Source: a virus
Length of the DNA stretch: 64,000 bases
Strand: one strand, 5' to 3'
IMG/VR virus record: IMGVR_UViG_3300027977_000029
Span: 7,704 to 71,703 of that record
In this document: positions 25,729 through 52,828 of the stretch, one piece after another
How positions within the stretch are numbered: position 1 is the first letter of the stretch
Layout of the letters: each line of letters opens with the position of its first letter
Position numbers and translations under genes: made by a program
The notes under the pieces: model-generated
Told to the model about the DNA's origin: nothing
Database searches by the model: none
Seen by the model: only the letters and a program-made list of their open reading frames with translations

Positions 25729-25755
25729 AGACCTGAGCATGTCTATAAACTGCTC
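25729..25755 (+). ncRNA. H-type pseudoknot element, copy 1
   Basis: AGAC-CT-GAGCA-T-GTCT-ATAAAC-TGCTC. Confidence 0.7.
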
Positions 25756-25763
25756 CACAAAAC

Positions 25764-25788
25764 GCGGAAATCTATCCATCTTATATGA
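25764..25788 (+). promoter_or_regulatory. Class B motif (GCSGRAAWYYWYCCATCTTATATGA), putative early promoter
   Basis: GCGGAAATCTATCCATCTTATATGA; three ungapped copies. Confidence 0.7.
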
Positions 25789-25850
25789 AAGGCTCTCTAA
25801 GAGTCTCTAACCGTACCTTGGATGAGGTACTCAACAGGAGGAATCCTAAA

Positions 25851-26165
25851 ATGTTTGCTGCTATCAAAGACCGCGTTGGCGACGCTCTTCACGCCCTGTT
25901 CTGTCGTCAAGAAGCTGCTGATGTCGTGATCGTCTATCTGGCGAAACCGAATACGCACGTCATGGCGGTCTACCAATGTGATTATCTGGTGGCCACTTAC
26001 ACCATCGGCAACGTGGAACTTCTGCAAAAGGAGTTCCGCAAGCGTAACGGTGAAATGCGCCACTTCCTGTGGAAGCTGACAGCCAAGCATCCGATCATGA
26101 TTGTCGAGGCGGAGACTCCTCGGAATCTGTCGGACCTGCTGGTTGACGGCGTTCCTGCCCTTTAA
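25851..26165 (+). CDS. Early hypothetical protein
   Basis: AGGAGG RBS, ATG at 25851, C/G-ending codons. Confidence 0.65.
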   Translation: MFAAIKDRVGDALHALFCRQEAADVVIVYLAKPNTHVMAVYQCDYLVATYTIGNVELLQKEFRKRNGEMRHFLWKLTAKHPIMIVEAETPRNLSDLLVDGVPAL

Positions 26166-26184
26166 TCCTGGAGAGGGTACTGCT

Positions 26185-26343
26185 ATGGTCTGGAAAGATC
26201 TGATCACTTACATCGTGACCATTCGCTGGCTTAACCACCACGAAGTCTTCACGATCGACGCTACGGACTACGAAGAGCTTTTCAAGAAGCTCGTTGACAA
26301 GGGTCTCATCGGGGCTCAAGGTATCGACATCGAGTTCTACTAA
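26185..26343 (+). CDS. Small early hypothetical protein
   Basis: GGAG RBS, ATG at 26185. Confidence 0.6.
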   Translation: MVWKDLITYIVTIRWLNHHEVFTIDATDYEELFKKLVDKGLIGAQGIDIEFY

Positions 26344-26351
26344 CTACAATC

Positions 26352-26378
26352 AGCCCTGGACATGGCTTTAAACTGTCT
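26352..26378 (+). ncRNA. H-type pseudoknot element, copy 2, followed by a T-rich tract
   Basis: AGCC-CT-GGACA-T-GGCT-TTAAAC-TGTCT. Confidence 0.7.
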
Positions 26379-26413
26379 ACTTCTTTTCTTTTAATTTTTG
26401 ATTGGAGACTAAC

Positions 26414-26787
26414 ATGAAATAGACACCTCAGGTAGAGTAGAATGTGCCACCACGTTTCAACTTCTCGGTTGGGCTATCTGGACTGACCTTTCACCCTTTG
26501 TGCAGGGCTACATCGAGGCTCTGCTTGAAAGCCTTTGCCCTGAAGAGGACGGCTCACGAGCTATGAGGCTTCCTGCTTTTACAGATCTTGCACCTGAGAC
26601 TTTTAAGCGGATCCTTGAAGACTGCGAGGCGTGGCGTAAGACTTACCCAAACGTTAGTCACTGTAAACGGGGCGGTGCAAGCTTCTGGCGTCTTCGCTCC
26701 GAGCAGCTAGTCAAACGGTCAGCCTTCCCACCACTTGCCAGCTATTTGGGCAATGACGCCCTTATATACTTTGGAGAAAGTAGATGA
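26414..26787 (+). CDS. Hypothetical protein with uncertain or frameshifted start
   Basis: Frame open from 26413; the RBS-associated ATG at 26414 is out of frame (ATG AAA TAG). Confidence 0.5.
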
Positions 26788-26966
26788 AAAAGCGTTTTAA
26801 GATCGTTATAGAGTTCGAAGGTGATATCGACATGGTTCCTGGCTGGGGTGACAACACCGCAGACTGGGTCAGGATGATCGCTCGAGACTTCGAACGGCAA
26901 ACCCACTACAACACCAGTGCAAAGGTGATCTCGGAGGAGATTACCAGCGTAGAAATAAAGGATTGA
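26784..26966 (+). CDS. Hypothetical protein
   Basis: ORF with GGAG RBS, overlapping the previous stop. Confidence 0.55.
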   Translation: MKKRFKIVIEFEGDIDMVPGWGDNTADWVRMIARDFERQTHYNTSAKVISEEITSVEIKD

Positions 26967-27149
26967 TTATGGAAAAGTTTAACCCAGCTATTGAGCGATT
27001 TATTTCTTGGCTAATGTCTGCCGGGATGACTCGCCAAGCTGCAATCAACCGTATGCGTCAAGGATCTTAATCACGGCCGACCAAATCCTAAGGTAGGTCT
27101 TATGAAAGCTTTCAAGAACTTACACAACCTTTAACTTGGAGATCTGATA

Positions 27150-27479
27150 ATGTATCTCGATACCACCCAAGTCGCCAAAGCCGCTCTCAAAGCTTATAAA
27201 GAGGGTAGACTCTCAGCTCAAGGCCCTACGCCTGAGTGCGCATACCGGGATAGTAGTGGCCGCCCTTGCGCAATCGGAGCCGCAATTCCTGATAAACTCG
27301 CCGAGGTTCTAACAGGTTCTATCTTCGCCATCATCTCCACCAGGGGCTGGAGGACCAACAACATTCAAGGACTTTCCATGCTGCAAGCAGCCCATGATGA
27401 TTGGGTTTGCGGCCCTAAGTCTCGCTACCGCGAAGAAGATTTTGTGAAAGTCGCTGTGATGCTGGCAGGAGGAGTTTAA
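27150..27479 (+). CDS. CxYR-G-CA(I/V)G family protein, paralog 1
   Basis: CAYRDSSGRPCAIGAAIP...LQAAHD. Confidence 0.65.
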   Translation: MYLDTTQVAKAALKAYKEGRLSAQGPTPECAYRDSSGRPCAIGAAIPDKLAEVLTGSIFAIISTRGWRTNNIQGLSMLQAAHDDWVCGPKSRYREEDFVKVAVMLAGGV

Positions 27480-27481
27480 CT

Positions 27482-27814
27482 ATGACTGACCAAATCAAAC
27501 ACGCTACGCTTCAAGAGTGGATCGAGGCTCTTGAGAGTGGAAAGTACCAACAGCATCGCAAGGAACTTACACCAAATAGCATTCCCATTGAAAGCACAGA
27601 TACTTTGTGCTGCTTGGGAGTTTATTGTAAGATTTCTGGATACACAGGTAACTCAGCCGATCTCCCCTATTTTGCTATTGTGGACGAGAATGTAGAAGTA
27701 CGGGTAGCCGATTGCATTATTTGGAACGATTACGATGATCTAACCTTCCCTGAAATCGCCCAAAAGCTTCGGGAACGTTATCTCAACAGGGGTACCCAAA
27801 ATGCCACGCTTTAA
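27482..27814 (+). CDS. Hypothetical protein with CCLGV...WND...TFPEIA motifs
   Basis: ORF with a strong AGGAGGAG RBS. Confidence 0.65.
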   Translation: MTDQIKHATLQEWIEALESGKYQQHRKELTPNSIPIESTDTLCCLGVYCKISGYTGNSADLPYFAIVDENVEVRVADCIIWNDYDDLTFPEIAQKLRERYLNRGTQNATL

Positions 27815-27971
27815 ATTTGAGAGCGCTTCCCAGCAAGGTTACGTTCTCAACACTCTCACTAGACTTCTGCAAGATATTAATGAACGAAGTCATTCTACTG
27901 CTGAAACCCAGAACCTTCGCCTGGCTATCAAGTGTGTCCTGGATGCGGAAGTTGAAGGAGAGTTCTCATGA
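27801..27971 (+). CDS. Small hypothetical protein (56 aa, below the ORF track cutoff)
   Basis: MPRFKFESASQQ...GEFS; stop overlaps the next ATG. Confidence 0.5.
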   Translation: MPRFKFESASQQGYVLNTLTRLLQDINERSHSTAETQNLRLAIKCVLDAEVEGEFS

Positions 27972-28159
27972 AGAAGTTCTGGCTGGTATACTGTCCAAGG
28001 TACTCAGTTATGTATCGGATGCCCAATAGAATAGAAGCCGCCTGTGAAGCAGACCGGCTCGCCAGAAAAGAGCCTGGGAAAACTTTCGTAGTTCTTGAGG
28101 CGGTAGCCTCTTATCAAGTCACGCCCTCAGAAGTTGTTGTTAAACTGCTGGATTCCTGA
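27968..28159 (+). CDS. Hypothetical protein
   Basis: EADRLARKEPGKTFVVLE; AAGGAG RBS. Confidence 0.6.
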   Translation: MKKFWLVYCPRYSVMYRMPNRIEAACEADRLARKEPGKTFVVLEAVASYQVTPSEVVVKLLDS

Positions 28160-28161
28160 CT

Positions 28162-28443
28162 ATGGAGATCTCAAGTTGTTCTAACTGTAGTGAGTATCAC
28201 TACTCTGCCTGCACCCTCTACGCTTTTTACCCAAAAGTCCTTCATTACTGCAGTTCTCACACGCCAGCCTACGGTACTACCACACTGCCTGAGGCTTTCT
28301 TGCTGGGAGCTTTTGCTAATGAGCGTTGGTTGCTTACAAGCAAACAAATCTCAGAATGGGAGACTGTGGGAGAAGTGGTAGAGATTCTTAACTTTCTGGA
28401 AATCTTTGATTCCTGGGCGTCTATCCTAACAGGAGACCTATGA
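28162..28443 (+). CDS. Cys-rich hypothetical protein
   Basis: CSNC...C...C..H. Confidence 0.5.
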   Translation: MEISSCSNCSEYHYSACTLYAFYPKVLHYCSSHTPAYGTTTLPEAFLLGAFANERWLLTSKQISEWETVGEVVEILNFLEIFDSWASILTGDL

Positions 28444-28826
28444 TGACACCCCAAGAAATCTTTGACACCGTTGCCACTCACCTGTTTACACAAGGTGAGC
28501 GTGCTACTGACAATTATACTTGCGTGTATCGTACACCTGAGGGTCTCAAGTGTGCGGTTGGCTGTCTTATCCCTAACAAGCTCTATCGAGTGTCTATGGA
28601 AGGAACTGTGCTCGATGGTCTCCTGCGGGATACAACATGCCAGCTTCCCAAGTATTTTAGAGAGAACAGAGAGCTTCTAAGAAAGCTACAGACTGCTCAT
28701 GACAATCAGGACAACTGGAGCAGTTCCCGGCACATGCGTAAGCGCCTGGAAGAGATTGCTAAGGAGCACTACCTCAACTACGATATACTTAAAACTCTTA
28801 GTTTCTCATGGGATATAGCTCAATGA
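28440..28826 (+). CDS. CxYR-G-CA(I/V)G family protein, paralog 2
   Basis: MTPQEIFDTVATHLFTQG...CVYRTPEGLKCAVGCLIP...LQTAHD. Confidence 0.7.
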   Translation: MMTPQEIFDTVATHLFTQGERATDNYTCVYRTPEGLKCAVGCLIPNKLYRVSMEGTVLDGLLRDTTCQLPKYFRENRELLRKLQTAHDNQDNWSSSRHMRKRLEEIAKEHYLNYDILKTLSFSWDIAQ

Positions 28827-29185
28827 CACCTCAACAAATTTTCGATACCGTCGCCACCCACCTGTTTACTCAAGGACACCCAGCCAAAAACCCGGATGGG
28901 TTCTGCGTATACCGCGCATACAGCGGGGATAAGTGCGCAGTTGGGTGTCTGATTCCTGACAGTGAGTATGAACCCCAGATGGAGAGTCAAAGCGTTAAAG
29001 AGTTAGTAATTCGATTTAAGACTCCTCTGTATTTTGCAGAGAACTTGGAGTTCCTTACTGAGTTGCAGAAGGTTCATGATTTCGTCGAATCTTGGACCTC
29101 TGAACAAACTCTGAAGCTTGCGTTATACAGAGTCGCTAGTGATTATAAGCTAAACCCTCACGTCTTGATCGGTTTAACTCTCTAA
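28823..29185 (+). CDS. CxYR-G-CA(I/V)G family protein, paralog 3
   Basis: MTPQQIFDTVATHLFTQG...CVYRAYSGDKCAVGCLIP...LQKVHD. Confidence 0.7.
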   Translation: MTPQQIFDTVATHLFTQGHPAKNPDGFCVYRAYSGDKCAVGCLIPDSEYEPQMESQSVKELVIRFKTPLYFAENLEFLTELQKVHDFVESWTSEQTLKLALYRVASDYKLNPHVLIGLTL

Positions 29186-29203
29186 AGAATAGGAAGTAAG
29201 CTA

Positions 29204-29542
29204 ATGTTGACTCGTAAACTTTTCTCGTCTGGTTATCTCAGGGCAAATCCTGGCATCAAAATTCTTGTAGAGGTAACTATCTCTAAATACCAACCTGATC
29301 TCAGAAGCTCGAATCTTGGAGTAGACGCCAATGGTGAGTATCTTGGCGTTATTCCAGTGAGTTCCGTAGTTGACTTGCTTGCAGAACCTTTCAAACCAGG
29401 TGACCTAGTGAAGTACGATGAGATTAGCCGCGGGAAAGTCGTCTATGTTGCTCCCGACGGTATGGTCGCTGTTATCTGGGGTGATAACAGTAAAGGTTGG
29501 TGGGAACCTGATAAGCTTGAAAGGGACTTTGATGTCATTTAA
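29204..29542 (+). CDS. Hypothetical protein with a C-terminal KOW/SH3-like segment
   Basis: FKPGDLVKY...GKVVYV. Confidence 0.55.
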   Translation: MLTRKLFSSGYLRANPGIKILVEVTISKYQPDLRSSNLGVDANGEYLGVIPVSSVVDLLAEPFKPGDLVKYDEISRGKVVYVAPDGMVAVIWGDNSKGWWEPDKLERDFDVI

Positions 29543-29930
29543 CCTGTTCAAACGCGACTACAAAGCTCTTCGGCAGATCAATGGAGCAGTCTCAGGACCA
29601 CTCGCGCGATTGTTCTACCTTAGAGGCATGTATGTAATGTATGCCGAGTCTAACGAGGTCTCTCTTAGAAACTTCGTTCCCATCTTTCGTGCCGCCAATG
29701 CCCTTGAGATTTGTGTTCTATACTTTGAGTATACTGAGTCCCACATCAAGGGGCTTGAGATGCTTACCAACGAGGAATTCAGTAAGTTGCCTCGCCGGTA
29801 TCAACTAGAAGCTGTAAAGCTAGAGAGTCTCTTCAACAACATCAATCTCTGGAGTCGCAACCTGTGCCCTGGTCGAAACGCCACAAGCTCCTCAAACTTG
29901 TCGCCTCTAACGCGAATGTCCTTACACTAG
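29532..29930 (+). CDS. Hypothetical protein
   Basis: ATG at 29532 in ORF 29418..29930. Confidence 0.5.
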   Translation: MSFNLFKRDYKALRQINGAVSGPLARLFYLRGMYVMYAESNEVSLRNFVPIFRAANALEICVLYFEYTESHIKGLEMLTNEEFSKLPRRYQLEAVKLESLFNNINLWSRNLCPGRNATSSSNLSPLTRMSLH

Positions 29931-30022
29931 CTGGAGTCGTGCTAGGTCTTATTGTTGTGCTTGGCCTTGTTGTTGAAATCGTTTGTTCTGTGGTGAGGTG
30001 GACACGTGCAAGTAGCTCTTAA
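29864..30022 (+). CDS. Small single-TM protein (52 aa)
   Basis: GGAG RBS and GTG start; LTLAGVVLGLIVVLGLVVEIV. Confidence 0.45.
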   Translation: MPWSKRHKLLKLVASNANVLTLAGVVLGLIVVLGLVVEIVCSVVRWTRASSS

Positions 30023-30064
30023 CTTATTCCTGGCGTTCCTCCTAATTCTTGGAGGTGTATGTTT

Positions 30065-30089
30065 GCGGGAAATCTTCCATCTTATATGA
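30065..30089 (+). promoter_or_regulatory. Class B motif, putative early promoter
   Basis: GCGGGAAATCTTCCATCTTATATGA. Confidence 0.7.
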
Positions 30090-30109
30090 AAGTCCTAGAA
30101 AGGTCTAAT

Positions 30110-30241
30110 ATGAGGTTTCTAACCTTGATCTTTGTAATCATCTTCAACGTGTTGATGATCGTCATCAGCACTGTCCTTGCCGATAAGCTCATGGGGTCTG
30201 CTTGGTTCAAGAAGCATATCCACAAGTTCTCGGTCCTTTAA
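30110..30241 (+). CDS. Small membrane protein
   Basis: AGAAAGGTCT RBS; hydrophobic N-terminus. Confidence 0.55.
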   Translation: MRFLTLIFVIIFNVLMIVISTVLADKLMGSAWFKKHIHKFSVL

Positions 30242-30255
30242 AGAAAGGTCTTACT

Positions 30256-30405
30256 ATGTTCGCCCAAACCGTCGCCCGTACTGCTGGCTTCATCTCCGGT
30301 GTTGCCCTCATCGTAGGCTTCGCCAAGATCGTCGGTTGGTTCATGACCATGGCTCTCCGTGGTCTCACGTTTCTCTTCCAGAAAGGCTTCATCAGGTTCC
30401 GCTAA
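30256..30405 (+). CDS. Small membrane protein
   Basis: Same AGAAAGGTCT RBS; hydrophobic. Confidence 0.55.
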   Translation: MFAQTVARTAGFISGVALIVGFAKIVGWFMTMALRGLTFLFQKGFIRFR

Positions 30406-30608
30406 TGAAAATTCTCCTCTTTGTGATCAGCATTCCGTTCCGTGTGATCCAGGCTATTCTCTGGAACATTGCGGGTCTCATCAGTCTCGTCCTGCTTCTG
30501 GCTATGACGATTCTGGGCTCGGTCGCCGCGATCCTCAGTTCTTTGATGGTTCTGGGTATCAACGCGATCGTGAAACAGCTCCAAAAGAAAGCTGTAAGGG
30601 CTCTGTAA
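30405..30608 (+). CDS. Small membrane protein
   Basis: TAATG coupling; long hydrophobic stretch. Confidence 0.55.
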   Translation: MKILLFVISIPFRVIQAILWNIAGLISLVLLLAMTILGSVAAILSSLMVLGINAIVKQLQKKAVRAL

Positions 30609-30818
30609 ATGCCTGCAAAGACTTTTATACGAAGTCTCGCTGAAGGCTTTGTAGTATCCATCATACTGGTAGCCCTAGCATTTACGCTAGCCGTTGGCTT
30701 TCTAATGCCAGCGTTTGGGCCTCTTAAAATCCCAAGGCGAATTATCTACAACTTCCAGCTCTTATTTTTGAGCTTGTGGGTGATATTCACCACCTACTTT
30801 TCTAACAAGAAGCCCTAG
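30609..30818 (+). CDS. Small two-TM membrane protein
   Basis: Two hydrophobic segments. Confidence 0.55.
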   Translation: MPAKTFIRSLAEGFVVSIILVALAFTLAVGFLMPAFGPLKIPRRIIYNFQLLFLSLWVIFTTYFSNKKP

Positions 30819-30926
30819 ACATGGCTAAAATCTGTCTACCACAGCCCTGAACATGGCTCTAAACTGTTCATCTTTTCTCTTATTTTTATCATTTTAAATA
30901 GCCCTGAACATGGCTCTAAACTGTTC
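30811..30926 (+). ncRNA. Cluster of three H-type pseudoknot elements (copies 3-5)
   Basis: 30811 AGCC-CT-AGACA-T-GGCT-AAAATC-TGTCT; 30843 and 30900 both AGCC-CT-GAACA-T-GGCT-CTAAAC-TGTTC. Confidence 0.72.
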
Positions 30927-30975
30927 TGAGTTCCCAAATAAATTTTTGGGCGATTGAGAATTGTAAAGAAAAGAA

Positions 30976-31110
30976 ATGATAGTACTTGCAGGAATACTCG
31001 TGATGGGAGCCTTGGTGCTCTGCTATAGACTTCTGAACGGTATTCTTGCAAGCGTGTTTGTGAGCCTGGTAATCTCTATCGGGCTAGGTTTTATTCTGAG
31101 AGATAGATAA
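30976..31110 (+). CDS. Small membrane protein (44 aa) translationally coupled to the RNAP gene
   Basis: MIVLAGILVMGALVLCYRLLNGILASVFVSLVISIGLGFILRDR; TAATG overlap with the RNAP start. Confidence 0.5.
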   Translation: MIVLAGILVMGALVLCYRLLNGILASVFVSLVISIGLGFILRDR

Positions 31111-33341
31111 TGCGTCAGGCATTGATAGCGTTATTGGATAAAAGACGTAAAGTAGAAATAGATCCTCGAAGTCCTCTTAAGTTCCTCATAACGGCCCCTG
31201 TAGAGTCTTATATAGACATGGCAATCTCCATCGTCTATTTATACACACGTCCAAAGAAAGGTTTTAAAAAGCAAGCTACATACCTGACAGAAGTGATCTC
31301 TGCTTTGGGCCATGGAGTGCGCAATAAGCTTAAACTCAAACGCGACTCTTCAGCTGCAGCAAAGACAGGTGCATTCATCCTGTACTCGTTTGAGCAGTTA
31401 GGTCTTCTTGAAGTCACTCTGGGTCAGGGCTCTAAAGGTCACAACGCTTACATAATTCAAGTTACTAACGATGATTTGATTTGTGCTCTTTGGAATGCTT
31501 TGACAATCACTCAAGCTGAAAAGCTTCCAAGTCTTACTCCGTTTGCTCCCTGGGTTAGTACCAAGCATGAGACAGGTGCTACACTTGTCAAAACTGGTAA
31601 TAAACGAGTCCTGGAGAGTCTCCAACCTGATACTCATCCAATTGTATTTTCTTGTGTAAACAAAGCTCAGACCCAAGGTTGGCGTGTTAATAAAGACATC
31701 TACGATATTTATAGATGGGCCCTCGATAACAAAACAGAAGCTTTCTCAGACATTTGGGACCAACACAATCCTGAAGCTAGGACCACCAAACTTAGAGAAG
31801 CTAAAGCGATCATTACTATTGCTGACAAGTTTGTTGACAAAACTTTCTATCATCTTTACTACTACGATTTTAGAGGTCGTAAGTACCCAACAACGGCTTA
31901 CCTCCATGAACAAGGCTCAGATGCCGCAAGAGGTCTACTTTTAAGAGCTGATCAAAAGGCTTTAGGCAAAGATGGTGCTAAATGGTTATACATCTATCTT
32001 GCCAATCTTTGGGCAGGCGATGCAGATAGAGTTGATGGTCTAAAAACTGACAAACTCCCACTCAGGGACAGAGTTCATTGGACTATGAGCAATGCTGCTG
32101 TATTGTTAAGCTATGCTACAGATCCTAAAACTAATCAGGGCTGGATGCAAGCTGACAAGCCTTGGCAATTCTTAGCAGCTTGTTTTGAATTCAACCGTCT
32201 TGTAGAATATTGCAGCACAGGTCGTATGACTAATGGTTTTGAATCTTCTTTAGAATGCTATTTAGACGGTAGCAATAATGGATCTCAGCATCTTTCAGCC
32301 CTTACGCTTGATGAAGAAACTGCGCCTCACGTAAACCTTGTCCCGCTCGCTTTTCCTGGTGATCTTTATAACTACGTCGCTAAACATGTTTGGGAAAGAA
32401 TTGATGAGTACTGTGAAGATTTTTCTTTAGAAGAAAAAGACCAGATAGACGTCTTTATCAGCGAACTCCTTAAATATAAGACCTCAATCCATGCTCTTCC
32501 TCAAAACTCAGATGTGCGTAAATCTTTGATTGAAGACTTAAAAGTCTTTAGGAACTCAAATAAAGAGCTTTTAACACTTGCCGCACCGGTGTTCTGGAAG
32601 AAGCTTAGCAGCCCTAAGGATCGTAGGAAGGTAGTCAAACGTAATGTTATGACTCTCCCTTACGGTGGTACTCCTTACGGTCTCGGTGAGCAACAGATAT
32701 CGGATGCACCCAAGCATGGTATTGAACTTCTCAATGGTCTTGAACAACGTTGGGGTGCTTACATGGGAAGAGAAGTCTACGAGAGTTGTCGAGTGTCGCT
32801 TAAACGCCCAATGCAGCTTCTTACTGTGTTTGAAAAAGCAGGTAAAGCAGCAGAGGACCGAGGCGAGTTCTTATCCTGGACAGTTCCTGTAACAAACTTT
32901 CCGGTTGTCCAAAACTATACTCAGGGTAAAGTTAAAAAGATTTGGGTACAATATGGACCTCCTGAAGGAGAGCGCCTGGGTACAGGGTACTACACAAACA
33001 CTCTTCAACTTGCTGTGTGTTTTATTGAAGATGTAGTTCCTTCAAAGAACAAGCAAGGTCAATCTGCTAGCCCAAATGCTATCCACAGTCTGGATGCAGC
33101 CCATCTTGCTATCACAGTCCATGAAGCTGAATTCTCTATAACAACTATTCATGACTCTTATGGAGCCCTGCTAGGTGATGTGGAGGGCTTATTTATACTT
33201 GTGAGAGAAACCTTTGTTGAGCTTTATGAGACCAATCCTTTAGAACAGCTCATGAAAGATATTCAGGGTGATGCTAGTCAAATCATGATTGGTAGCTTGG
33301 ATATCAGAGCTGTACTTGAATCTGACTATTGCTTTGTGTGA
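31110..33341 (+). CDS. Single-subunit T7-type DNA-directed RNA polymerase (743 aa)
   Basis: DFRGRKY; motif A DGSNNGSQH; motif B RKVVKRNVMTLPYG; PNAIHSLDAAH; motif C IHDSY. Confidence 0.96.
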   Translation: MRQALIALLDKRRKVEIDPRSPLKFLITAPVESYIDMAISIVYLYTRPKKGFKKQATYLTEVISALGHGVRNKLKLKRDSSAAAKTGAFILYSFEQLGLLEVTLGQGSKGHNAYIIQVTNDDLICALWNALTITQAEKLPSLTPFAPWVSTKHETGATLVKTGNKRVLESLQPDTHPIVFSCVNKAQTQGWRVNKDIYDIYRWALDNKTEAFSDIWDQHNPEARTTKLREAKAIITIADKFVDKTFYHLYYYDFRGRKYPTTAYLHEQGSDAARGLLLRADQKALGKDGAKWLYIYLANLWAGDADRVDGLKTDKLPLRDRVHWTMSNAAVLLSYATDPKTNQGWMQADKPWQFLAACFEFNRLVEYCSTGRMTNGFESSLECYLDGSNNGSQHLSALTLDEETAPHVNLVPLAFPGDLYNYVAKHVWERIDEYCEDFSLEEKDQIDVFISELLKYKTSIHALPQNSDVRKSLIEDLKVFRNSNKELLTLAAPVFWKKLSSPKDRRKVVKRNVMTLPYGGTPYGLGEQQISDAPKHGIELLNGLEQRWGAYMGREVYESCRVSLKRPMQLLTVFEKAGKAAEDRGEFLSWTVPVTNFPVVQNYTQGKVKKIWVQYGPPEGERLGTGYYTNTLQLAVCFIEDVVPSKNKQGQSASPNAIHSLDAAHLAITVHEAEFSITTIHDSYGALLGDVEGLFILVRETFVELYETNPLEQLMKDIQGDASQIMIGSLDIRAVLESDYCFV

Positions 33342-33347
33342 GGCGAA

Positions 33348-33984: not shown

Positions 33985-33987
33985 CTT

Positions 33988-34275: not shown

Positions 34276-34285
34276 CTGGCCCGAG

Positions 34286-44563: not shown

Positions 44564-44570
44564 CACTAAC

Positions 44571-44598: not shown

Positions 44599-44608
44599 TG
44601 GAGCTATA

Positions 44609-45508: not shown

Positions 45509-45509
45509 C

Positions 45510-46764: not shown

Positions 46765-47006
46765 CCCATACCAGAGAAACGAACGAAGAATTTATTCTAG
46801 ACTTGATCAACTTTGGACCATACGGAGGTCTTCAACAAGTGTTTCTCATTGAAGCTATTCGAAGCTACAGTGAGCGAATCTCTAAACTAGATCCAGCAAG
46901 CTTTGAAGGAGGCCTTATTGCTCCTGAAGCTTGGGTAGGCACAGCTAAGTATATCTTCCAGAAAGTCGAGGCCCGCTATGGCGACAGTAAGGACTCTACT
47001 ACGTAA
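46761..47006 (+). CDS. Hypothetical protein
   Basis: ORF with ATGA overlap. Confidence 0.55.
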   Translation: MTHTRETNEEFILDLINFGPYGGLQQVFLIEAIRSYSERISKLDPASFEGGLIAPEAWVGTAKYIFQKVEARYGDSKDSTT

Positions 47007-47430: not shown

Positions 47431-47682
47431 ATGGCTAAAACTTACGCTCAGATTAAGCAAGAAGACAGTAATCGCGAGATTGAGGCTGTCTACAGCAATC
47501 TCGCAATCATCGAACGTGAGATGAACGAGCTGCAATACTCATTTGAGAGGTCAATGGAAGAGTTTACAAAGCTCCACCTCCAATATCTCGCGCAGCCTAC
47601 CCACGAGGGCCTTCAGGTCTTTCGAGCAAGGGTCACTAAGCTTAGGCAAGCTTTTCCTAAGTATGATGAGATTCCGTTCTAA
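47431..47682 (+). CDS. Coiled-coil protein ending in DEIPF
   Basis: ORF with an SSB-like C-terminal tip. Confidence 0.6.
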   Translation: MAKTYAQIKQEDSNREIEAVYSNLAIIEREMNELQYSFERSMEEFTKLHLQYLAQPTHEGLQVFRARVTKLRQAFPKYDEIPF

Positions 47683-47726
47683 GTTTTAAACCTAAGGTTT
47701 CTGCAAAGTAATGCCTTACAAAATTT

Positions 47727-47860
47727 GGCCGCCTGCAGCCGCGAGGCCCCCGCCTTGCCTGCCCCCTCGACCGGGCCGCCGCGCCCGCCCTGGACCAACC
47801 TCGCGTGCGCACGGTACCAACCTACAGCGACCCGCCCCTGAACCGGCGTCGTCGCTGACC
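47727..47860. other. Second GC-rich non-coding island (C-rich top strand)
   Basis: Composition shift; shares inverted motifs with 24345-24500. Confidence 0.65.
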
Positions 47861-47865
47861 ACCTC

Positions 47866-47883
47866 AACCCGTTAAGTTAACCC
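47866..47883 (+). promoter_or_regulatory. Class A motif
   Basis: AACCCGTTAAGTTAACCC. Confidence 0.75.
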
Positions 47884-47964
47884 TTTATCTTGAAACTCAT
47901 AACAGATATCTGGGTTTTTGTAAATAGTAGTGTGTCACTATTATTTGAATCAGCAGGACATAAA

Positions 47965-48534
47965 ATGACCGAGATCAAGAACGTCTTCACGACTCCCGAT
48001 GGCAAGCAGTTTGATACTAAGGCCGAGGCTGTCAACCATCTGCGTCTTCCGAAGATTCGTGAAGCGTTTGCTAAGCTGACCGACAACAATACCGAACTTG
48101 CTGAGTGGCTTATTGCCAATCAAGAGCAGGTCGAAATGGCTTTCGAAACGGGCACGATTCGTCGTGTCTCGAAGGCCGAGAAGAAGAAGCTCCAAGCTTC
48201 TCTGGATGCCATCAAGGAAGCTGGCAATCCGAAGTTTGCTTTCGTTGTTGACAATCTGGAAGCCATCTATACGAGCTTCCGTTGGCCGTCTGTCACTCGT
48301 CTGAAGCCGGAAGAGAAGACTGCCGCCGCTCAAGAAGCTCTGATGAAGCTTTCTGACGATAACGCTGAACTGGTTGGCTACGTTCTGGCTAACCAAGAAG
48401 GTATCATGGCTTGCTATGAAGCTGGTATCGAAAAGCGTCCGATGAACCCGAAGGCTGCAGAAGCCCTTGTTGAGTGGCGTGCTAAGGAAGCTGCCAAGAA
48501 GGCTGCTAAGGCCACTGAAGAGGTCGCCGGCTAA
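47965..48534 (+). CDS. Probably highly expressed protein with an internal two-fold repeat
   Basis: EAFAKLTDNNTELAEWLIANQE...FETG versus EALMKLSDDNAELVGYVLANQE...YEAG; capsid-like codon bias. Confidence 0.7.
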   Translation: MTEIKNVFTTPDGKQFDTKAEAVNHLRLPKIREAFAKLTDNNTELAEWLIANQEQVEMAFETGTIRRVSKAEKKKLQASLDAIKEAGNPKFAFVVDNLEAIYTSFRWPSVTRLKPEEKTAAAQEALMKLSDDNAELVGYVLANQEGIMACYEAGIEKRPMNPKAAEALVEWRAKEAAKKAAKATEEVAG

Positions 48535-48545
48535 TCTAGATAGTC

Positions 48546-48625
48546 GGTAGGATGTCGGAGGGACAATGTTAGCTACTTGTCTTGAATAACGGCTCTATTG
48601 TATTAGTTGCCTCCGACGTCGCACC
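48546..48625 (+). ncRNA. Long imperfect hairpin (possible RNase III site or small RNA)
   Basis: GATGTCGGAGG (48551-61) pairs with CCTCCGACGTC (48610-20); inner ACAAT/ATTGT pairing. Confidence 0.5.
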
Positions 48626-48642
48626 TTAGAAACATACTTTAA

Positions 48643-48673
48643 AAGACCCACCCTAACCGGTGGGTTTTATTTT
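48643..48673 (+). terminator. Intrinsic terminator
   Basis: AAGACCCACC/GGTGGGTTTT stem followed by ATTTT. Confidence 0.75.
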
Positions 48674-48682
48674 GAGGTTTAG

Positions 48683-48928
48683 ATGAGTATTGAACAGTTC
48701 AGTTGGCCATGTGATCACCTTGATCATGATGTCCAGGTACCAGGTTGTGAATTCCATGCCTTCTTTGGGCATTCATTCTGTGAAGTGCACCGTAACGAAC
48801 TGGCGATTAAGTTCGTTGAGAAGCGGGGTAAACGACTACCGAAGCCTGATGCTCCTGTTGAAGAGAGTTTCGAAGAGTTCGCCTTCATCCCAGCCAAGCA
48901 AAAGAGGCGCTATGACAGACGCTATTAA
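48683..48928 (+). CDS. Cys/His-rich hypothetical protein
   Basis: CDH...C...FCEVH. Confidence 0.55.
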   Translation: MSIEQFSWPCDHLDHDVQVPGCEFHAFFGHSFCEVHRNELAIKFVEKRGKRLPKPDAPVEESFEEFAFIPAKQKRRYDRRY

Positions 48929-49283
48929 ATACGACCCTTATCCGTATGCTATTGGCTCTGAAGAATTCCCTGGGTTCTCTAAACTTATCGAAGAGCTGGG
49001 TGAACTTAATCAAGTAATTGGTCAAATTCTTGCACGTGGCAGTCAGCTAGGTGATTTTCATAATCACAAACTTGCAACCAGACTCGTGGAAGAGATGGCT
49101 GATACCTCAGCTGCTATCCTGCTTGTATTAGACGAAAACAAGCTGAACAATAAAGGCTTTATCGCTCGTCGTAACTACAAGTATAATACATACCGGCGTT
49201 GGCAGGCTCAAGGTATTGATGCTTGGAAAGGTTACGAAGACGAGTTCTTGTCTACACCTGAGGGTTTTCCTCTTGGTGAATAA
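48912..49283 (+). CDS. MazG-like all-alpha NTP pyrophosphohydrolase
   Basis: KLIEELGEL...LVEEMAD (ExxE...ExxD). Confidence 0.7.
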   Translation: MTDAIKYDPYPYAIGSEEFPGFSKLIEELGELNQVIGQILARGSQLGDFHNHKLATRLVEEMADTSAAILLVLDENKLNNKGFIARRNYKYNTYRRWQAQGIDAWKGYEDEFLSTPEGFPLGE

Positions 49284-49286
49284 TAC

Positions 49287-49362
49287 GCCGCTTTAGCTCA
49301 GCTGGTAGAGCAACGGTTTTGTAAACCGTGGGTCGCAGGTTCGAATCCTGTAGGCGGCACCA
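49287..49362 (+). tRNA. tRNA-Thr(TGT)
   Basis: Cloverleaf; anticodon arm ACGGT-TTTGTAA-ACCGT; TTCGAAT loop; CCA end. Confidence 0.95.
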
Positions 49363-49380
49363 TTTTTAGAAAGACTTAAA

Positions 49381-49731
49381 ATGAACCTTAAGACTGCTAA
49401 TAGGCGTAGACGTAAAACTAGTAGCGACTACAGATACTCTCAATGGCTCAAGCAGTTTAAACTTGGAGCTATTGTAGAGAGTTGCTCCTTACACCCGATT
49501 CGTATTACTCGGTTTAACACTAAGCCCTACGGAGGCTTTGTTGATGGTGAGTCGCTCCTAGATGGCAGTCATCAAAGTTGCTCTATCCGACACTGCGGCG
49601 TAGATTTCTTAGCACCTTGGGAAGTCAAGAAAAAGCTTAAGCTTTGGAACAGTGGAGGTGAAAAGGCTCTTATTGCTGATTACTATGGAAGTAAAGAGGC
49701 TGCAGACGCCTTTATCAAAACCTGGAGATGA
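49381..49731 (+). CDS. Hypothetical protein (Cys/His motif)
   Basis: ESCSLHP...SCSIRHCG. Confidence 0.6.
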   Translation: MNLKTANRRRRKTSSDYRYSQWLKQFKLGAIVESCSLHPIRITRFNTKPYGGFVDGESLLDGSHQSCSIRHCGVDFLAPWEVKKKLKLWNSGGEKALIADYYGSKEAADAFIKTWR

Positions 49732-49733
49732 TT

Positions 49734-49821
<88 letters not shown>

Positions 49822-49846
49822 ATTAACATAAGAGAAAGTTGACTGA

Positions 49847-50005
49847 ATGAACTTGCTATTCATCGCTAAGGGTCCTAACCGCACACCCGTCGTAGTTGTC
49901 GGAGCTAATAACGACCGGGTTGTATATCACTACGATCATGAGAAGCGTAGACACTATGGTTGCGTGTCTCGTAAGTTCTTTGAAGAGAATTACGTCAAGG
50001 TTTAA
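49847..50005 (+). CDS. Small hypothetical protein (52 aa)
   Basis: MNLLFIAKGPNRTPVVVVG...ENYVKV fills the gap after tRNA-Ser. Confidence 0.5.
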   Translation: MNLLFIAKGPNRTPVVVVGANNDRVVYHYDHEKRRHYGCVSRKFFEENYVKV

Positions 50006-50007
50006 AG

Positions 50008-50032
50008 GCCGGAATTCTCCCATCTTATATGA
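50008..50032 (+). promoter_or_regulatory. Class B motif
   Basis: GCCGGAATTCTCCCATCTTATATGA, upstream of a GGAGG RBS. Confidence 0.7.
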
Positions 50033-50051
50033 TAACCATGGAGGTTGATCA

Positions 50052-50552
50052 GTGTTTAACCAAAAGCCTACCAAACAAATTCCTACTACATTTGCTCTAG
50101 GCCAGGAGCTAATAGATGACCTTACAGGTTTCTGTGGGTATGCCTATCAGCTACTCTATCAAGATAACGGCAATCTAAGGATCTCCCTTCAACCTAAGAG
50201 CAACAGCCCGAGCAAGCTTGAAGAAGCAATCAGTTTTGATATTCACACGCTGAGTATCGTCAGTGGTGGCTACTCTGACAGGATCCCTCCTGTTACCCCG
50301 TTCAAGTACATGTTCGGAGACCGCGTGAAAGATAGGCTCACGGGTTTCAATGGGATCATCGTTTGTAGAGCTTACTTTATAAATGGGTGTGCCTTTTACG
50401 AAGTTGTCAGTGAGAAGCTTGATAAAGATCAGCGCCCGGTGTGCTCTTGGATCCCTGAGCGGTACATTGAGCTGGTTAAAATCAGAGCAATATCTCCTCC
50501 TGAAAAGACAAAGACAGGTGGACCTCCCACTAAAGTTTCGTTCCGAGGCTAG
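50052..50552 (+). CDS. Protein with a duplicated SH3-like domain
   Basis: G....D.LTGF.G...NG pattern occurs twice. Confidence 0.65.
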   Translation: MFNQKPTKQIPTTFALGQELIDDLTGFCGYAYQLLYQDNGNLRISLQPKSNSPSKLEEAISFDIHTLSIVSGGYSDRIPPVTPFKYMFGDRVKDRLTGFNGIIVCRAYFINGCAFYEVVSEKLDKDQRPVCSWIPERYIELVKIRAISPPEKTKTGGPPTKVSFRG

Positions 50553-50559
50553 ATTAACC

Positions 50560-50636
50560 GCGCCCATAGCTCAACTGGTTAGAGCCGTCAGCTCATAACT
50601 GACTGGTTACAGGTTCAAGTCCTGTTGGGCGCACCA
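50560..50636 (+). tRNA. tRNA with CAT anticodon, likely tRNA-Ile2 (lysidine)
   Basis: G1-C72 pair (not initiator); C4-G69 and C5-G68 as in TilS substrates; CTCATAA loop; CCA end. Confidence 0.85.
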
Positions 50637-50655
50637 ACTCTGTGGAGACAGAAAA

Positions 50656-50955
50656 ATGACTATCGAAGTACCTCTCAGCAAAGCTCCTAGTAAAATTGCT
50701 GAAAAAGCTGCAATGGACCTCACGTTACTGGTAACTAACTTTACTAAAGACCCTCTTGAATCTGTCGATATTCTTTTGTTGTCAGCTGTAGGTTACAGTG
50801 TGGCAGGTTCAGTGTACGATAGTCAGTCGACTGGAGAGTCTCGTTTGGACTATATACGTGAGCGACTTGAGTATCTTCATGAATTTCTTATAGGACGTAT
50901 GGAGAGTGACCCTAAAGCACTAGAGCTCGCTGAACTTATAAGGGGATCCCGATGA
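50656..50955 (+). CDS. Array family A protein, copy 1
   Basis: AEKAA...N...D..ES.D.LLL...GE......ERL. Confidence 0.6.
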   Translation: MTIEVPLSKAPSKIAEKAAMDLTLLVTNFTKDPLESVDILLLSAVGYSVAGSVYDSQSTGESRLDYIRERLEYLHEFLIGRMESDPKALELAELIRGSR

Positions 50956-51359
50956 ACGAAATTCTTAAGTATCAAGGTGAATTATACCTAAAGGCTAAGC
51001 CTGATGAGTCACTTGCCAAGACACATTACTTTTCGGTGATGTTGGATGCTGGTTGGATTCTTGCTACGCGGCTGTCTGATGGTAAACTCACTTTTATTGA
51101 TCCACCAGTTGCAAAACCTGATGAGTTATACTGTATTGTATGGGTTCGTAAAAACAAGGTCGAGCTTACAGGTGTGTTCGAGAACGACATTGACATCCTT
51201 TACGACATCTGGATAGATCTCGCACCATACGAAAAAGCAAATTTGCTTTTCTATAATATAACTAAAGGTAAGACAAAGGTTGAAACTTTCGTGCGTTCAC
51301 CCCCAATCCCTTGGGCCTCCACTAAAACTTACATTGAAGGACTTTACAAGAATGTCTGA
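50952..51359 (+). CDS. Array family B protein, copy 1
   Basis: GELYLK...WIL...GKL...LTGVF...GLY. Confidence 0.6.
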   Translation: MNEILKYQGELYLKAKPDESLAKTHYFSVMLDAGWILATRLSDGKLTFIDPPVAKPDELYCIVWVRKNKVELTGVFENDIDILYDIWIDLAPYEKANLLFYNITKGKTKVETFVRSPPIPWASTKTYIEGLYKNV

Positions 51360-51588
51360 ACCTATGACACCCCGCGCAGAAGAAGCCTCAGCAGGCTTTA
51401 TCAAAGTACTACAGAACCTTGGAACTGACGAAAGAGAGTCTACGGACGCACTCCTGCTGGGATTAGCTAGTTTTCTAAGAGCTCAAGAACGGCATTTTGG
51501 GTCTGAGTTGGGTGAACTCGCACGGGAAGCACTCATCGACCGTCTTGATGAGTTCCTTGAATATATCAGAGAGCAAGAACGCGTATGA
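51352..51588 (+). CDS. Array family A protein, copy 2
   Basis: AEEAS...N...D..ES.D.LLL...GE......DRL. Confidence 0.6.
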   Translation: MSEPMTPRAEEASAGFIKVLQNLGTDERESTDALLLGLASFLRAQERHFGSELGELAREALIDRLDEFLEYIREQERV

Positions 51589-51725
51589 GTCGCTACATCA
51601 CGCACAATGGGGATGTTCGGGTTAAGACCTACATCGGGTCTGACTTGGCTGAAATTTCGCGCACTGTGATCATCAAGCGTCTTGACGAATTCGTCGAATT
51701 TATTAAAGGAAGGGAGCTCGTATAA
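51585..51725 (+). CDS. 46-aa B/A chimeric mini-gene
   Basis: MSRYITHNGDVRVKT (B-like) joined to GSDLAEISRTVIIKRLDEFVEFI (A-like); stop/start overlaps on both sides. Confidence 0.6.
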   Translation: MSRYITHNGDVRVKTYIGSDLAEISRTVIIKRLDEFVEFIKGRELV

Positions 51726-52135
51726 TGGATAAGTATCATATCGAAGGCGATGAAGTTTTTATTAAGACTAGCTACCGTCCAATTCACCCGCTGAGTCGTA
51801 GTAAGGTTCTGGCCGAGCATGCACACAATCTCTACTGTAATATCAAGACCGGTGAGCTCAAAGTTCTTCCAACTAAACCGATGGCCTTCAAAGTTTATGG
51901 GAAGTACGGCAGAGCTTCGCAAAATCTGTCCGGTATTTATACTACGGACCAGAATGCAATCTATAAGTTCTACGAGTTACTCACGAACGACTATGCCGAA
52001 TTCACTCTAGAAGCTTATGGGTACCGTGACGGATTTTGGGCCAAGAAGGTTTTGGTAATAGATCCCACTCGTCGTTGGAGCCTGATCAAGGAAGATTTGC
52101 TCAAGTTTTACGAAGAATACGGAAGGGTTAGCTAG
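51725..52135 (+). CDS. Array family B protein, copy 2
   Basis: EVFIKT...CNIKTGELK...NLSGIY..DQ. Confidence 0.65.
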   Translation: MDKYHIEGDEVFIKTSYRPIHPLSRSKVLAEHAHNLYCNIKTGELKVLPTKPMAFKVYGKYGRASQNLSGIYTTDQNAIYKFYELLTNDYAEFTLEAYGYRDGFWAKKVLVIDPTRRWSLIKEDLLKFYEEYGRVS

Positions 52136-52543
52136 ATGGCGAAGCACCTTATTGATAATGGGGAAGTCTGGATCAAGACCACCTATGACCTAACCGGTCC
52201 ACTCGGGAAGAGTTCGCTTCTGGCAACTTACGGAAATGGTGACTGGATTCTTTGTTGCAATATCGCAACCGGAGAACTCAAGTACCTCAAGAACCCGGAA
52301 GCGCCTGTAAAGCCAAGTTACGCTTTCAGGCTGGCATTCCCTGACTCCAACTTTTTCAATCTAACTGGTGTGTATGGGAATGATCAGTCAGTTCTCTACA
52401 AACATCGCCAAGAAGGTTGTAAGCTGTATGTAATGAAGAGGGCTGAAGTCTTTGCCAGTTTTGTACTCCCGAGAAACGCCACCTGGCTGAATGACCTCAA
52501 ACCCAAGCTGATTGACCTTTACAAAACATATGGAAGCGTGTAA
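52136..52543 (+). CDS. Array family B protein, copy 3
   Basis: EVWIKT...CNIATGELK...NLTGVY..DQ. Confidence 0.65.
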   Translation: MAKHLIDNGEVWIKTTYDLTGPLGKSSLLATYGNGDWILCCNIATGELKYLKNPEAPVKPSYAFRLAFPDSNFFNLTGVYGNDQSVLYKHRQEGCKLYVMKRAEVFASFVLPRNATWLNDLKPKLIDLYKTYGSV

Positions 52544-52563
52544 CAATGAAAAAGATCTCGAGT

Positions 52564-52593
52564 AGTACCCTAGGTAGTTTCACCTAGGGTACT
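52564..52593. repeat. Perfect 12-bp inverted repeat
   Basis: AGTACCCTAGGT-N6-ACCTAGGGTACT; no U tract. Confidence 0.7.
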
Positions 52594-52636
52594 CTCACTA
52601 TACCGGTGAGGGACCCTCCTTTAATACGAGGTTTAA

Positions 52637-52792
52637 ATGTCTCTCGCGAACAAGCGGAAAAAGGACCAGGAGATGGCCCAGCAGATGAAGCGGCTGGGGA
52701 TCGAGCGCAATCACACCAATTGCCCGATCTGTCATCACACGACGTCTCTGAGCAATCTTCGGTTCCACCTGACGACCTGTCAGGGCCGCTAA
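52637..52792 (+). CDS. 51-aa C2HC zinc-finger protein
   Basis: GAGGT RBS; CPIC-x11-H-x3-C; C/G-ending codons. Confidence 0.65.
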   Translation: MSLANKRKKDQEMAQQMKRLGIERNHTNCPICHHTTSLSNLRFHLTTCQGR

Positions 52793-52801
52793 TAACACTA
52801 C

Positions 52802-52828
52802 AGTCCTGAGCATGACTTTAAAAGGCTC
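52802..52828 (+). ncRNA. H-type pseudoknot element, copy 6
   Basis: AGTC-CT-GAGCA-T-GACT-TTAAAA-GGCTC; ends 10 nt before tRNA-Leu. Confidence 0.65.

Follow-up and report, generated by a model that had tools for sequence, protein, structure and literature searches.

The described systems closest in form to the element reported here are small exoribonuclease-resistant RNAs (xrRNAs) of plant viruses, above all coremin (xrRNA-C), which is found in plant RNA viruses, beny- and cucumoviruses among them (Dilweg, Gultyaev, Olsthoorn 2019, PMC6546385; Dilweg et al. 2023, PMC10520033). What is said of these RNAs here and below refers to excerpts of the papers cited. The coremin of BNYVV (beet necrotic yellow vein virus) is given as C1 G2 U3 C4 / C5 G6 A7 A8 / G9 A10 C11 G12 / U13 U14 A15 A16 A17 C18 U19 A20 C21, with a CGAA loop, and for resistance to Xrn1 it requires a second hairpin (PMC6546385). 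Its stem tolerates compensatory changes, its loop-closing pair must be pyrimidine–purine, A15–A17 and C18–U19 are unchangeable, and coremin is also found as tandem motifs (PMC6546385). Furthermore, it blocks scanning ribosomes and stimulates frameshifting (PMC10520033). In a second type, xrRNA-WCC (Dilweg et al. 2023, PMC10321173), loop bases 6–8 pair Watson–Crick with spacer bases 18–20. Here we describe a compact RNA pseudoknot that occurs six times in a phage genome (IMG/VR record IMGVR_UViG_3300027977_000029, a 71,703-nt contig). The window analysed comprises 64,000 nt, bases 7704–71703 of this contig, and the positions of the copies are given in window coordinates.

The motif is 27 nt long and has the layout S1(4)-CY-S2(5)-U-S1'(4)-NNAAAC-S2'(5), where S1 and S2 are the two stems. 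All six copies lie on the + strand, dispersed over 27 kb. Copy 1 (25729–25755; AGAC CT GAGCA T GTCT ATAAAC TGCTC) starts 6 nt after the TAA of the open reading frame (ORF) at 25501–25722, the last gene of the structural/lysis block, and its 27-mer was found in identical form in the IMG/VR loci L012 and L030. Copy 2 (26352–26378; AGCC CT GGACA T GGCT TTAAAC TGTCT, with a G-U pair in S2) begins 8 nt past a TAA at 26341–26343 and has a T-rich tract behind it. Copy 3 (30811–30837; AGCC CT AGACA T GGCT AAAATC TGTCT) overlaps the gene before it, its positions 6–8 being the TAG of the ORF at 30609–30818. Copies 4 (30843–30869; AGCC CT GAACA T GGCT CTAAAC TGTTC) and 5 (30900–30926; the same 27-mer as copy 4) stand in tandem behind copy 3 with no ORF before either; 5 nt separate copies 3 and 4, and the start-to-start spacings of the three are 32 and 57 nt. 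Copy 4 is followed by a T-rich tract. Behind copy 5, at a distance of 6 nt, there is a hairpin CCCAAA-N6-TTTGGG, and further downstream lie the ORF at 30976–31110 and the RNA polymerase gene (31110–33341). Copy 6 (52802–52828; AGTC CT GAGCA T GACT TTAAAA GGCTC) starts 9 nt after the TAA of a small ORF (52637–52792, the stop ending at 52792), and tRNA-Leu(UAA) (52839–52924, + strand) starts 10 nt behind it. Structure close behind the motif was seen in the window at copies 5 (hairpin) and 6 (tRNA) only.

A first-pass annotation of the sequence had placed six copies at just these sites, two of them before T tracts (copies 2 and 4) and one ahead of tRNA-Leu (copy 6), and all of this was confirmed. 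Its further statement that the copies sit at or just after stop codons is true of copies 1, 2 and 6 and, as an overlap, of copy 3; copies 4 and 5 merely follow copy 3. A degenerate pattern allowing up to two mismatches returned exactly these six copies, against a mean of 0.72 in shuffled sequences, none of 100 shuffles reaching six. Likewise, a structure-aware scan of the whole contig returned the same six and no others (50 shuffled genomes: mean 0.02, maximum 1). Within the window, the S1 pair 3/14 appears as C-G, A-T and T-A, and the S2 pairs vary as G-C, A-T and G-T (7/27), A-T and G-C (8/26) and A-T and G-C (9/25). The stem variants listed earlier were correct except for S2 of copy 6, which reads GAGCA/GGCTC and contains an A11-G23 mismatch. 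This AAAAGG form is a recurrent variant of the family (14 of 77 distinct good contexts).

The fold was assessed by scans of IMG/VR in which one part of the motif was held constant and the proposed partner bases were free to vary. Scan A (AGNCCTNNNCATGNCTNNAAA), with S1 and the loop fixed and positions 23–27 free, gave at least 120 matches, and scan B (CCTGAGCATGNNNNNAAACTGCTC), with S2 fixed and S1 free, gave at least 132. Among the 120 matches listed for scan A, no more than one of the nine pairs was a non-pair in 78, and 111 had a Watson–Crick pair at 3/14; several of the remaining rows are length variants of loop 3. Among the 132 matches listed for scan B, both pair 2/15 (GC 43, CG 40, AT 28, TA 21) and pair 3/14 (all four pair types used) were Watson–Crick in every case, and pair 1/16 was formed in 112. 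An alignment of 147 distinct rows from the scans (A1), chance rows included, had 89.7% of its cells paired, compared with 73.4% in shuffles. Cells changed on both sides numbered 194 against 50.5 in shuffles, a value that none of 500 shuffles reached, and pairing fell to 27–38% in controls with the partner slid. The second stem covaries, with 17, 23 and 14 rows changed on both sides at pairs 7/27, 8/26 and 9/25, respectively. At the inner pairs 8/26 and 9/25, G-T occurs five times and A-C never. Positions C4, C5, T6, C10, A11, T12, G13, A19 and A20 are invariant in A1, but since all of them are fixed by both search patterns, this shows no conservation; A21 is present in more than 90% of rows. 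The base right behind the motif is A in 128 of 200 contexts, and the next nine bases are G-poor and T-rich.

Based on these results, the repeats are copies of a compact H-type RNA pseudoknot, with an S1 of 4 bp, a loop 1 of C plus a pyrimidine, an S2 of 5 bp, a loop 2 of U and a loop 3 of NNAAAC that is usually followed by A. The covariation across phage homologs supports the earlier proposal of a structured element on the + (sense) strand with compensatory changes in both stems. The loop lengths had been described as invariant, which they are inside the window; across the family they are not, as A1 includes rows with a loop 3 of 7–8 nt. A sixth S2 pair, U6-A28, was considered and rejected: a complete scan for non-T at position 6 gave 48 matches, 44 of them with C, and the following base was still A in 37 of those 44.

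A frequent phage form, CGTC CT GAGCA T GACG TTAAAC TGCTC, resembles coremin in several respects. The two share a first hairpin of 4 bp whose third pair is G-C and whose loop is closed by C-G, a C as first loop base (C5), and the spacer UUAAACU with the three A's that coremin cannot lose; changes are tolerated at spacer positions 1–2 in both, the stem of the hairpin covaries in both, and both occur as tandem copies. Coremin has a first hairpin of 3–4 bp with a pyrimidine–purine closing pair, and the corresponding C4-G13 is present in 147 of 147 rows of A1, where it is fixed by both patterns. The loop differs: that of coremin is YGAD (4 nt) or YGNNAD (6 nt), whereas that of the phage element has 8 nt (C-Y-N-N-N-C-A-U) and agrees with it only at its first base (Y) and at the two final ones (A-U, which fit A-D). 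Opposite the coremin spacer UUAAACUAC, with its essential A15–A17, C18 and U19, the phage element has NNAAAC-U; its AAA, which both search patterns fix, is invariant or exceeds 90%. At C22-U23 this sequence is in the majority, with the AG variant in 14 of 77 contexts, and the final AC of coremin is replaced by the second-stem strand. The second hairpin (hp2) that coremin has directly downstream is not a feature of the 199 phage contexts, in which coremin-type hp2 is not enriched behind the motif. In addition, the phage element has a canonical second stem of 5 bp, where coremin has CUAC without an obvious Watson–Crick partner; it is carried by DNA phages and bacterial mobile elements, which do not encounter Xrn1; and it lies behind stop codons inside polycistronic messages, while coremin lies in a viral 3′ untranslated region. 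By analogy, the phage element may work like coremin, yet we do not count it as a member, because two defining features of coremin were tested and are lacking.

The likeness to xrRNA-WCC concerns the second helix. Both are H-type, and in both the loop of the first hairpin pairs antiparallel Watson–Crick with the spacer behind UUAAA; compensatory changes restore WCC function (PMC10321173), and in the phage family the corresponding pairs (7/27, 8/26 and 9/25) covary. The WCC element differs in having a second stem of 3 bp and a loop 1 of 1 nt (G5) and in needing hp2 to resist Xrn1, against 5 bp and a 2-nt loop 1 (C plus pyrimidine) in the phage element. Small luteovirus-type frameshift pseudoknots, as named in PMC10321173, are similar to the phage element in size and topology, in their A-rich loop 3 and in a distance of 5–9 nt from the A-site codon. 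The phage element differs from them in standing behind a stop codon (in 63 of the 84 close cases a TAA), in having no slippery site and no requirement for an extended downstream frame, and in its tandem and ORF-less copies. Stem-loops that stabilise the 3′ ends of bacterial and phage messages, such as terminator hairpins, REP elements and the RNase III-processed hairpins of T7, stand at the ends of cistrons and have been proposed as stops for 3′ exonucleases once processing has occurred. They are simple hairpins of little sequence conservation, in contrast to the present pseudoknot, whose sequence is conserved across phyla.

The position of the motif relative to genes follows clear rules. Of 196 distinct contexts whose flanks are complete, 163 have a sense ORF (45 codons or more) with its end between −60 and +12 nt from the motif, and 84 of these 163 ends lie 4–9 nt away, compared with 9 in the same test on the opposite strand. 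The gap between stop codon and motif is most often 5 nt (36 cases), followed by 6 nt (16), 8 nt (11), 9 nt (9) and 7 nt (8); a gap of 4 nt was found in only 4 cases, and a few contexts have the stop inside the motif. The bacterial contexts described below show the same peak. The spacer sequences of the close cases (4–9 nt) are diverse. Since 5 nt is about the distance from a stop codon in the A site to the mRNA entrance of the ribosome, a ribosome standing on the stop codon would not need to unwind the knot, which would stay folded throughout translation of the upstream gene. The downstream start codon is spread over 17–39 nt without a sharp peak, and in 113 of 160 family contexts its distance is below 40 nt. 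A tRNA gene begins 3–14 nt downstream in 24 of 200 contexts, and a tRNA within 60 nt upstream was found in one of 200. A terminator-like hairpin lies within 70 nt behind the motif in 14 of 110 bacterial contexts against 5 of 110 control windows; in phage contexts, terminator-like hairpins were counted in 2 of 199, against 4 of 199 controls. The 45 nt behind the motif have a mean minimum free energy (MFE) of −4.4 kcal/mol in the 199 phage contexts versus −5.7 kcal/mol in control windows. The 12 nt behind the motif hold at least seven T's in 45 of 199 cases; at +100 the figure is 7 of 199. It should be noted that in the IMG/VR locus L019 both pseudoknots are followed by a candidate promoter of the type named D15 (see below), which is the layout of copy 1.

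The pattern with S1 left free, applied to one genome per bacterial species, gave at least 126 matches; of those listed, 114 were Watson–Crick at both free S1 pairs. Many Saccharibacteria are among the titles of the bacterial matches, next to Anaerolineae, Firmicutes, Bacteroidota, Actinobacteria, Proteobacteria, Nostoc and others. The hosts of the phage carriers span alphaproteobacteria, cyanobacteria, Firmicutes and Bacteroidota, and the named carriers include Roseobacter phage SIO1, Lentibacter phages ICBM1-3, Celeribacter phage P12053L, the crAss-like phage cr7_1, Synechococcus phage S-CRM01, and Lactobacillus, Lactococcus and Clostridium phages. When 50 of 65 upstream ORF fragments from bacterial contexts were scanned against Pfam, 41 had no match and 9 fell into six families, namely DUF7249 (3), DUF3768 (2), RadC, DUF932, HSP20 and an anticodon-binding domain. 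These upstream genes look like mobile-element cargo rather than core genes. The sequence of copy 1, searched as near-identical sequence only, had no match in 5,426 complete Escherichia coli genomes, and the single E. coli phage match has an imperfect S1.

Two conserved chromosomal contexts carry the knot in many metagenome-assembled genomes of Saccharibacteria, one of them behind a DUF7249 gene. The first set of loci comprises L264, L279, L284, L290, L295, L326, L355 and L366, and the second L265, L282, L289, L330, L332 and L341. This suggests a widespread mobile element in that phylum. A variant was also observed in Synechococcus phage S-CRM01 (L135, record positions 141809–141840; AGAC CT GAGTA A GTCT ATAAAC TAC). 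Its second stem is only 3 bp long, it has the coremin-like ending AAACTAC, and it stands 3 nt ahead of a tRNA-Lys gene.

Searched against Rfam 15, the whole window at the gathering score gave the five tRNAs only, and six carrier loci gave 12 matches at E values up to 10, none of them on the motif. The first-pass annotation had left open a match to a described family; in the window and the six loci the motif matches none, and assignment to an Rfam family, the small pseudoknot riboswitches included, was rejected. Literature searches on coremin with phage, on xrRNA with bacteriophage or RNase J, on phage pseudoknots at intergenic or tRNA sites and on motif strings returned no description of the motif in phages, no xrRNA work treating phages and none joining coremin with phage. 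The motif may be among the 10,006 candidate viral RNAs catalogued in PMC10690425. The family is large, is in no RNA catalogue searched, and is placed directly behind stop codons by phages and mobile elements.

The data show the motif, its fold as read from covariation, the strand on which it acts and the rules of its placement, whereas the blocking of an enzyme, the identity of that enzyme and the side from which it comes are inferred. We suggest, with a probability of roughly 0.45, that the element works as an RNA roadblock, complete in itself, and forms a cap at the 3′ end of the upstream message. The knot would be transcribed within the polycistronic messages of the phage, and the fold would probably act as a mechanical obstacle without a host-specific factor, as coremin of plant viruses does. 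A 3′ end might then arise by termination, by an endonuclease cut in the A/U-rich stretch behind the knot or, at copy 6, by RNase P, whose cut at the 5′ end of tRNA-Leu would leave the knot plus 10 nt as the 3′ end of the upstream RNA. Exonucleases moving 3′ to 5′ would stop at the knot, so that the end of the upstream message would be both marked and shielded.

Several observations favour this suggestion. The knot tracks the upstream stop codon and not the downstream start. It stands before tRNA genes, where RNase P would make a 3′ end, and not behind them. Bacterial knots sometimes precede a terminator hairpin. Copy 1 has the last late gene on one side and a candidate promoter on the other, and the two copies in L019 show the same arrangement. 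The tandem arrangement of copies 3–5 argues for a barrier of partial efficiency and not for a signal that is read once by a terminating ribosome, and the breadth of hosts and the conserved loop bases fit a fold that works by itself. Among the functions listed in the first-pass annotation, a 3′ exonuclease block or processing boundary is the one that best fits the stop spacing, the location before but not after tRNA genes and the place of copy 1. A terminator for a phage RNA polymerase found no support, given that 13 loci of relatives lack the motif and that its carriers are unrelated phages.

A number of points weigh against such a 3′ cap. The sequencing runs with this phage are lake-water DNA, so no RNA end is seen at any copy. 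Coremin, in the excerpts of PMC10520033 and PMC10321173, blocks enzymes that arrive from the 5′ side (Xrn1 and scanning ribosomes), not 3′ exonucleases. In the 113 of 160 contexts where the next gene follows within 40 nt, a 3′ end needs an unproven endonuclease cut, and where a terminator hairpin follows the knot, a second cap seems redundant. At copy 3, which overlaps the stop codon, the terminating ribosome must open S1. Finally, only one of the five tRNA genes of the window is preceded by the knot.

It is also conceivable, though unlikely, that the element is an xrRNA in the strict sense, which halts 5′-to-3′ activity (RNase J, or RNase E scanning from the 5′ end) and protects the RNA downstream of it, that is, the polymerase message, tRNA-Leu or the next cistron. 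Three tandem copies do lie directly upstream of the RNA polymerase operon. The named carriers infect, for example, Firmicutes, cyanobacteria and alphaproteobacteria, which have RNase J, and in E. coli the sequence of copy 1 is unmatched in the genomes searched and the sole phage match is imperfect. The features in common with coremin and xrRNA-WCC, namely the first-hairpin pairs G2-C and C4-G, C5, the spacer UUAAACU and the loop–spacer pseudoknot (PMC6546385, PMC10321173), point the same way. However, a candidate promoter lies downstream of copy 1 and of each copy in L019, which places them outside the 5′ leader of the next unit. Knots are nearly absent behind tRNA genes (1 of 200), where a new 5′ monophosphate end would need protection, and their position is tied to the upstream stop and not to the downstream start. 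Nor is the hp2 that coremin requires enriched behind the phage motif, as seen from the MFE values and hairpin counts given above.

Quite unlikely, in our view, is a translational insulator, in which the knot, held at the mRNA entrance of the terminating ribosome, keeps post-termination or read-through ribosomes out of the next cistron or tRNA precursor. Such a role would account for the sharp 5-nt gap, although genome compaction explains a minimal gap equally well. It would also fit the presence of knots at ORF-to-tRNA junctions but not at tRNA-to-ORF junctions, and the effects of coremin on scanning ribosomes and on frameshifting (PMC10520033, PMC10321173). At copies 4 and 5, however, and in the 33 of 196 contexts where no upstream ORF ends, there is no ribosome to act on, and the prevalence of TAA among the close stops indicates that read-through is not promoted. 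For the same reason, a role as a stop-codon read-through signal, which was considered separately, is unlikely.

We regard as very unlikely a transcription pause or terminator, in which stacked S1 and S2 together with a U tract replace a terminator hairpin. As a variant of this idea, the 3′ halves ACTGTTC and ATCTGTCT might mimic a sequence-type pause signal of T7-like polymerases; at 26372–26400 and 30863–30899, the 3′ halves of copies 2–5 (AAACTGTCT, AATCTGTCT, AAACTGTTC) and the T-rich tracts after copies 2 and 4 resemble what we take to be the pause signal of T7 RNA polymerase. The T-rich tracts behind these two copies, the excess of T runs behind the motif (45 of 199 contexts against 7 of 199) and the scarcity of classical terminators in the window agree with termination. 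Still, the T tract is absent in most contexts, and the element lacks the G+C-rich simple hairpin followed by a U tract that marks an intrinsic terminator. Between copy 5 and the start of the RNA polymerase gene, there is no repeat-family promoter that would serve this gene alone. Where a tRNA follows after 3 nt or a start codon within 40 nt, there is no room for a new promoter and transcription must read through, so that the knot is not an efficient terminator there. A promoter or terminator specific to the T7-like polymerase of the phage was rejected, because 13 loci of relatives lack the motif, the carriers are unrelated phages, and the repeats D9 (four copies) and D15 (three copies) fit promoters better.

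Scarcely to be expected is a binding site, decoy, ligand sensor or tiny self-cleaving RNA, in which the invariant loop bases would be there for recognition or catalysis and not for mechanical stability. The loop and junction bases that are invariant in A1, though fixed by both search patterns, the A21 present in more than 90% of rows and the A following the motif in 128 of 200 contexts would suit it. No gene family is consistently linked with the motif, however (41 of 50 upstream fragments without a Pfam match and 9 spread over six families), the hosts are too diverse for one protein partner, and coremin needs the same bases for protein-free resistance to Xrn1 (PMC6546385).

A site acting as DNA, either a cassette recombination site folded as a single strand or a phage RNA polymerase promoter, is highly improbable: the distribution is patchy (the motif is present here but in none of the 13 RNA polymerase loci of relatives) and linked to small accessory genes and to the conjugative-element entry-region genes DUF3768, RadC and DUF932, but two interleaved covarying helices fit a folded single strand and not a duplex site, sense polarity is strict and stop spacing is of ribosome scale (84 against 9 on the other strand), G-T but never A-C occurs at pairs 8/26 and 9/25, and D9 and D15 look like promoters instead. 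Type III antitoxin RNAs (ToxI-like) are head-to-tail pseudoknot repeats beside an endoribonuclease toxin gene. Such an RNA was rejected here, as the copies are dispersed, only copies 3–5 being close, and a PHROG scan of 53 ORFs revealed no toxin-like gene.

A knot of about 28 nt with near-perfect covariation in two interleaved helices recurs in phages whose hosts differ widely and in mobile elements from many bacterial phyla. It is possible, though doubtful, that it represents the first prokaryotic exoribonuclease- or helicase-resistant RNA of the xrRNA class, a protein-independent knot of about 28 nt whose core is shared, by descent or convergence, with coremin of plant and fungal RNA viruses, and which punctuates polycistronic messages and sets which cistrons and tRNA precursors survive decay. 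If bacterial nucleases or ribosomes are blocked as coremin blocks Xrn1 or scanning ribosomes, evasion of RNA decay would link eukaryotic RNA viruses and phages. It would help to explain the differing stabilities of individual cistrons in tightly packed phage operons, and it would offer a very small portable part for stabilising or insulating bacterial messages. For annotation, such sites show where genes truly end and which strand is sense in the genomes of uncultured phages.

The phage itself was characterised from its contig. The first and last ~100 bases are identical (contig positions 1–120 and 71584–71703), so the assembly is circular or terminally redundant and the gene order permuted. 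All large ORFs are on the + strand, and the PHROG scan of the 53 ORFs indicated a tailed phage with scaffold, major head and head–tail adaptor genes. The tape measure gene (5399–15226, +; 3,275 aa) is followed by a 2,635-aa ORF without a PHROG match (16403–24310). This ORF contains four to six tandem units of ~255–261 nt, with repeats at 19219–20820, and its product is probably a repeat-domain tail fibre or decoration protein. The lysis genes lie near 25175–25722, and the T7-like single-subunit RNA polymerase gene (31110–33341) comes after a block of small unknown genes. Behind it are genes for a gp2.5-like single-stranded DNA-binding protein, DNA polymerase, exonuclease, primase-helicase, ribonucleotide reductase and ligase; the five tRNA genes lie within 49287–54009, and the terminase gene is at 58595–59941. 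The nearest named relatives of the polymerase are those of roseophages DSS3_VP1 and DSS3_PM1 (35% identity). The motif was found in none of 13 loci around RNA polymerase genes of relatives (29–59% identity, up to 10 kb on each side). DNA of the phage was found in 13 lake-water metagenome runs, all of them DNA, and in no RNA run.

Two other repeat families were found in the window. Repeat D9 (23 nt, TGACCCCGTTAATTTAACCCAGG-like) occurs on the + strand at 319–341, 24558–24580, 47864–47886 and 57555–57577, each copy ahead of a gene block (scaffold/head, post-tail-fibre and two accessory blocks), and it is a candidate promoter of the T7-like RNA polymerase. Repeat D15 (GCGGAAATCTATCCATCTTATATGAAAG) occurs at 25764–25791 (+ strand, 8 nt behind copy 1), 30065–30092 and 50008–50035. 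Repeats of this type are 28–40 nt long and consist of a TTGCGG-like box and a TATCTTATATGA box; they are conserved in the early regions of related phages, 1–3 kb upstream of the RNA polymerase genes, and copies were located in L121 (7194, 7506 and 8478), L127 (8400 and 8940), L120 (6846 and 8174) and L019. We consider D15 a candidate host-type early promoter. A 15-bp stem with a T-rich tail was observed at 57464–57498, 57 nt before a D9 repeat, and it is the sole strong classical terminator-like hairpin in 24000–33000 and 47000–58500. In addition, adjacent pairs of paralogous small genes were noted at 28440–29185 and 53178–53921; one pair matches phrog_17693 twice, and the other contains a 127-nt repeat with 84% identity between 53174 and 53546.

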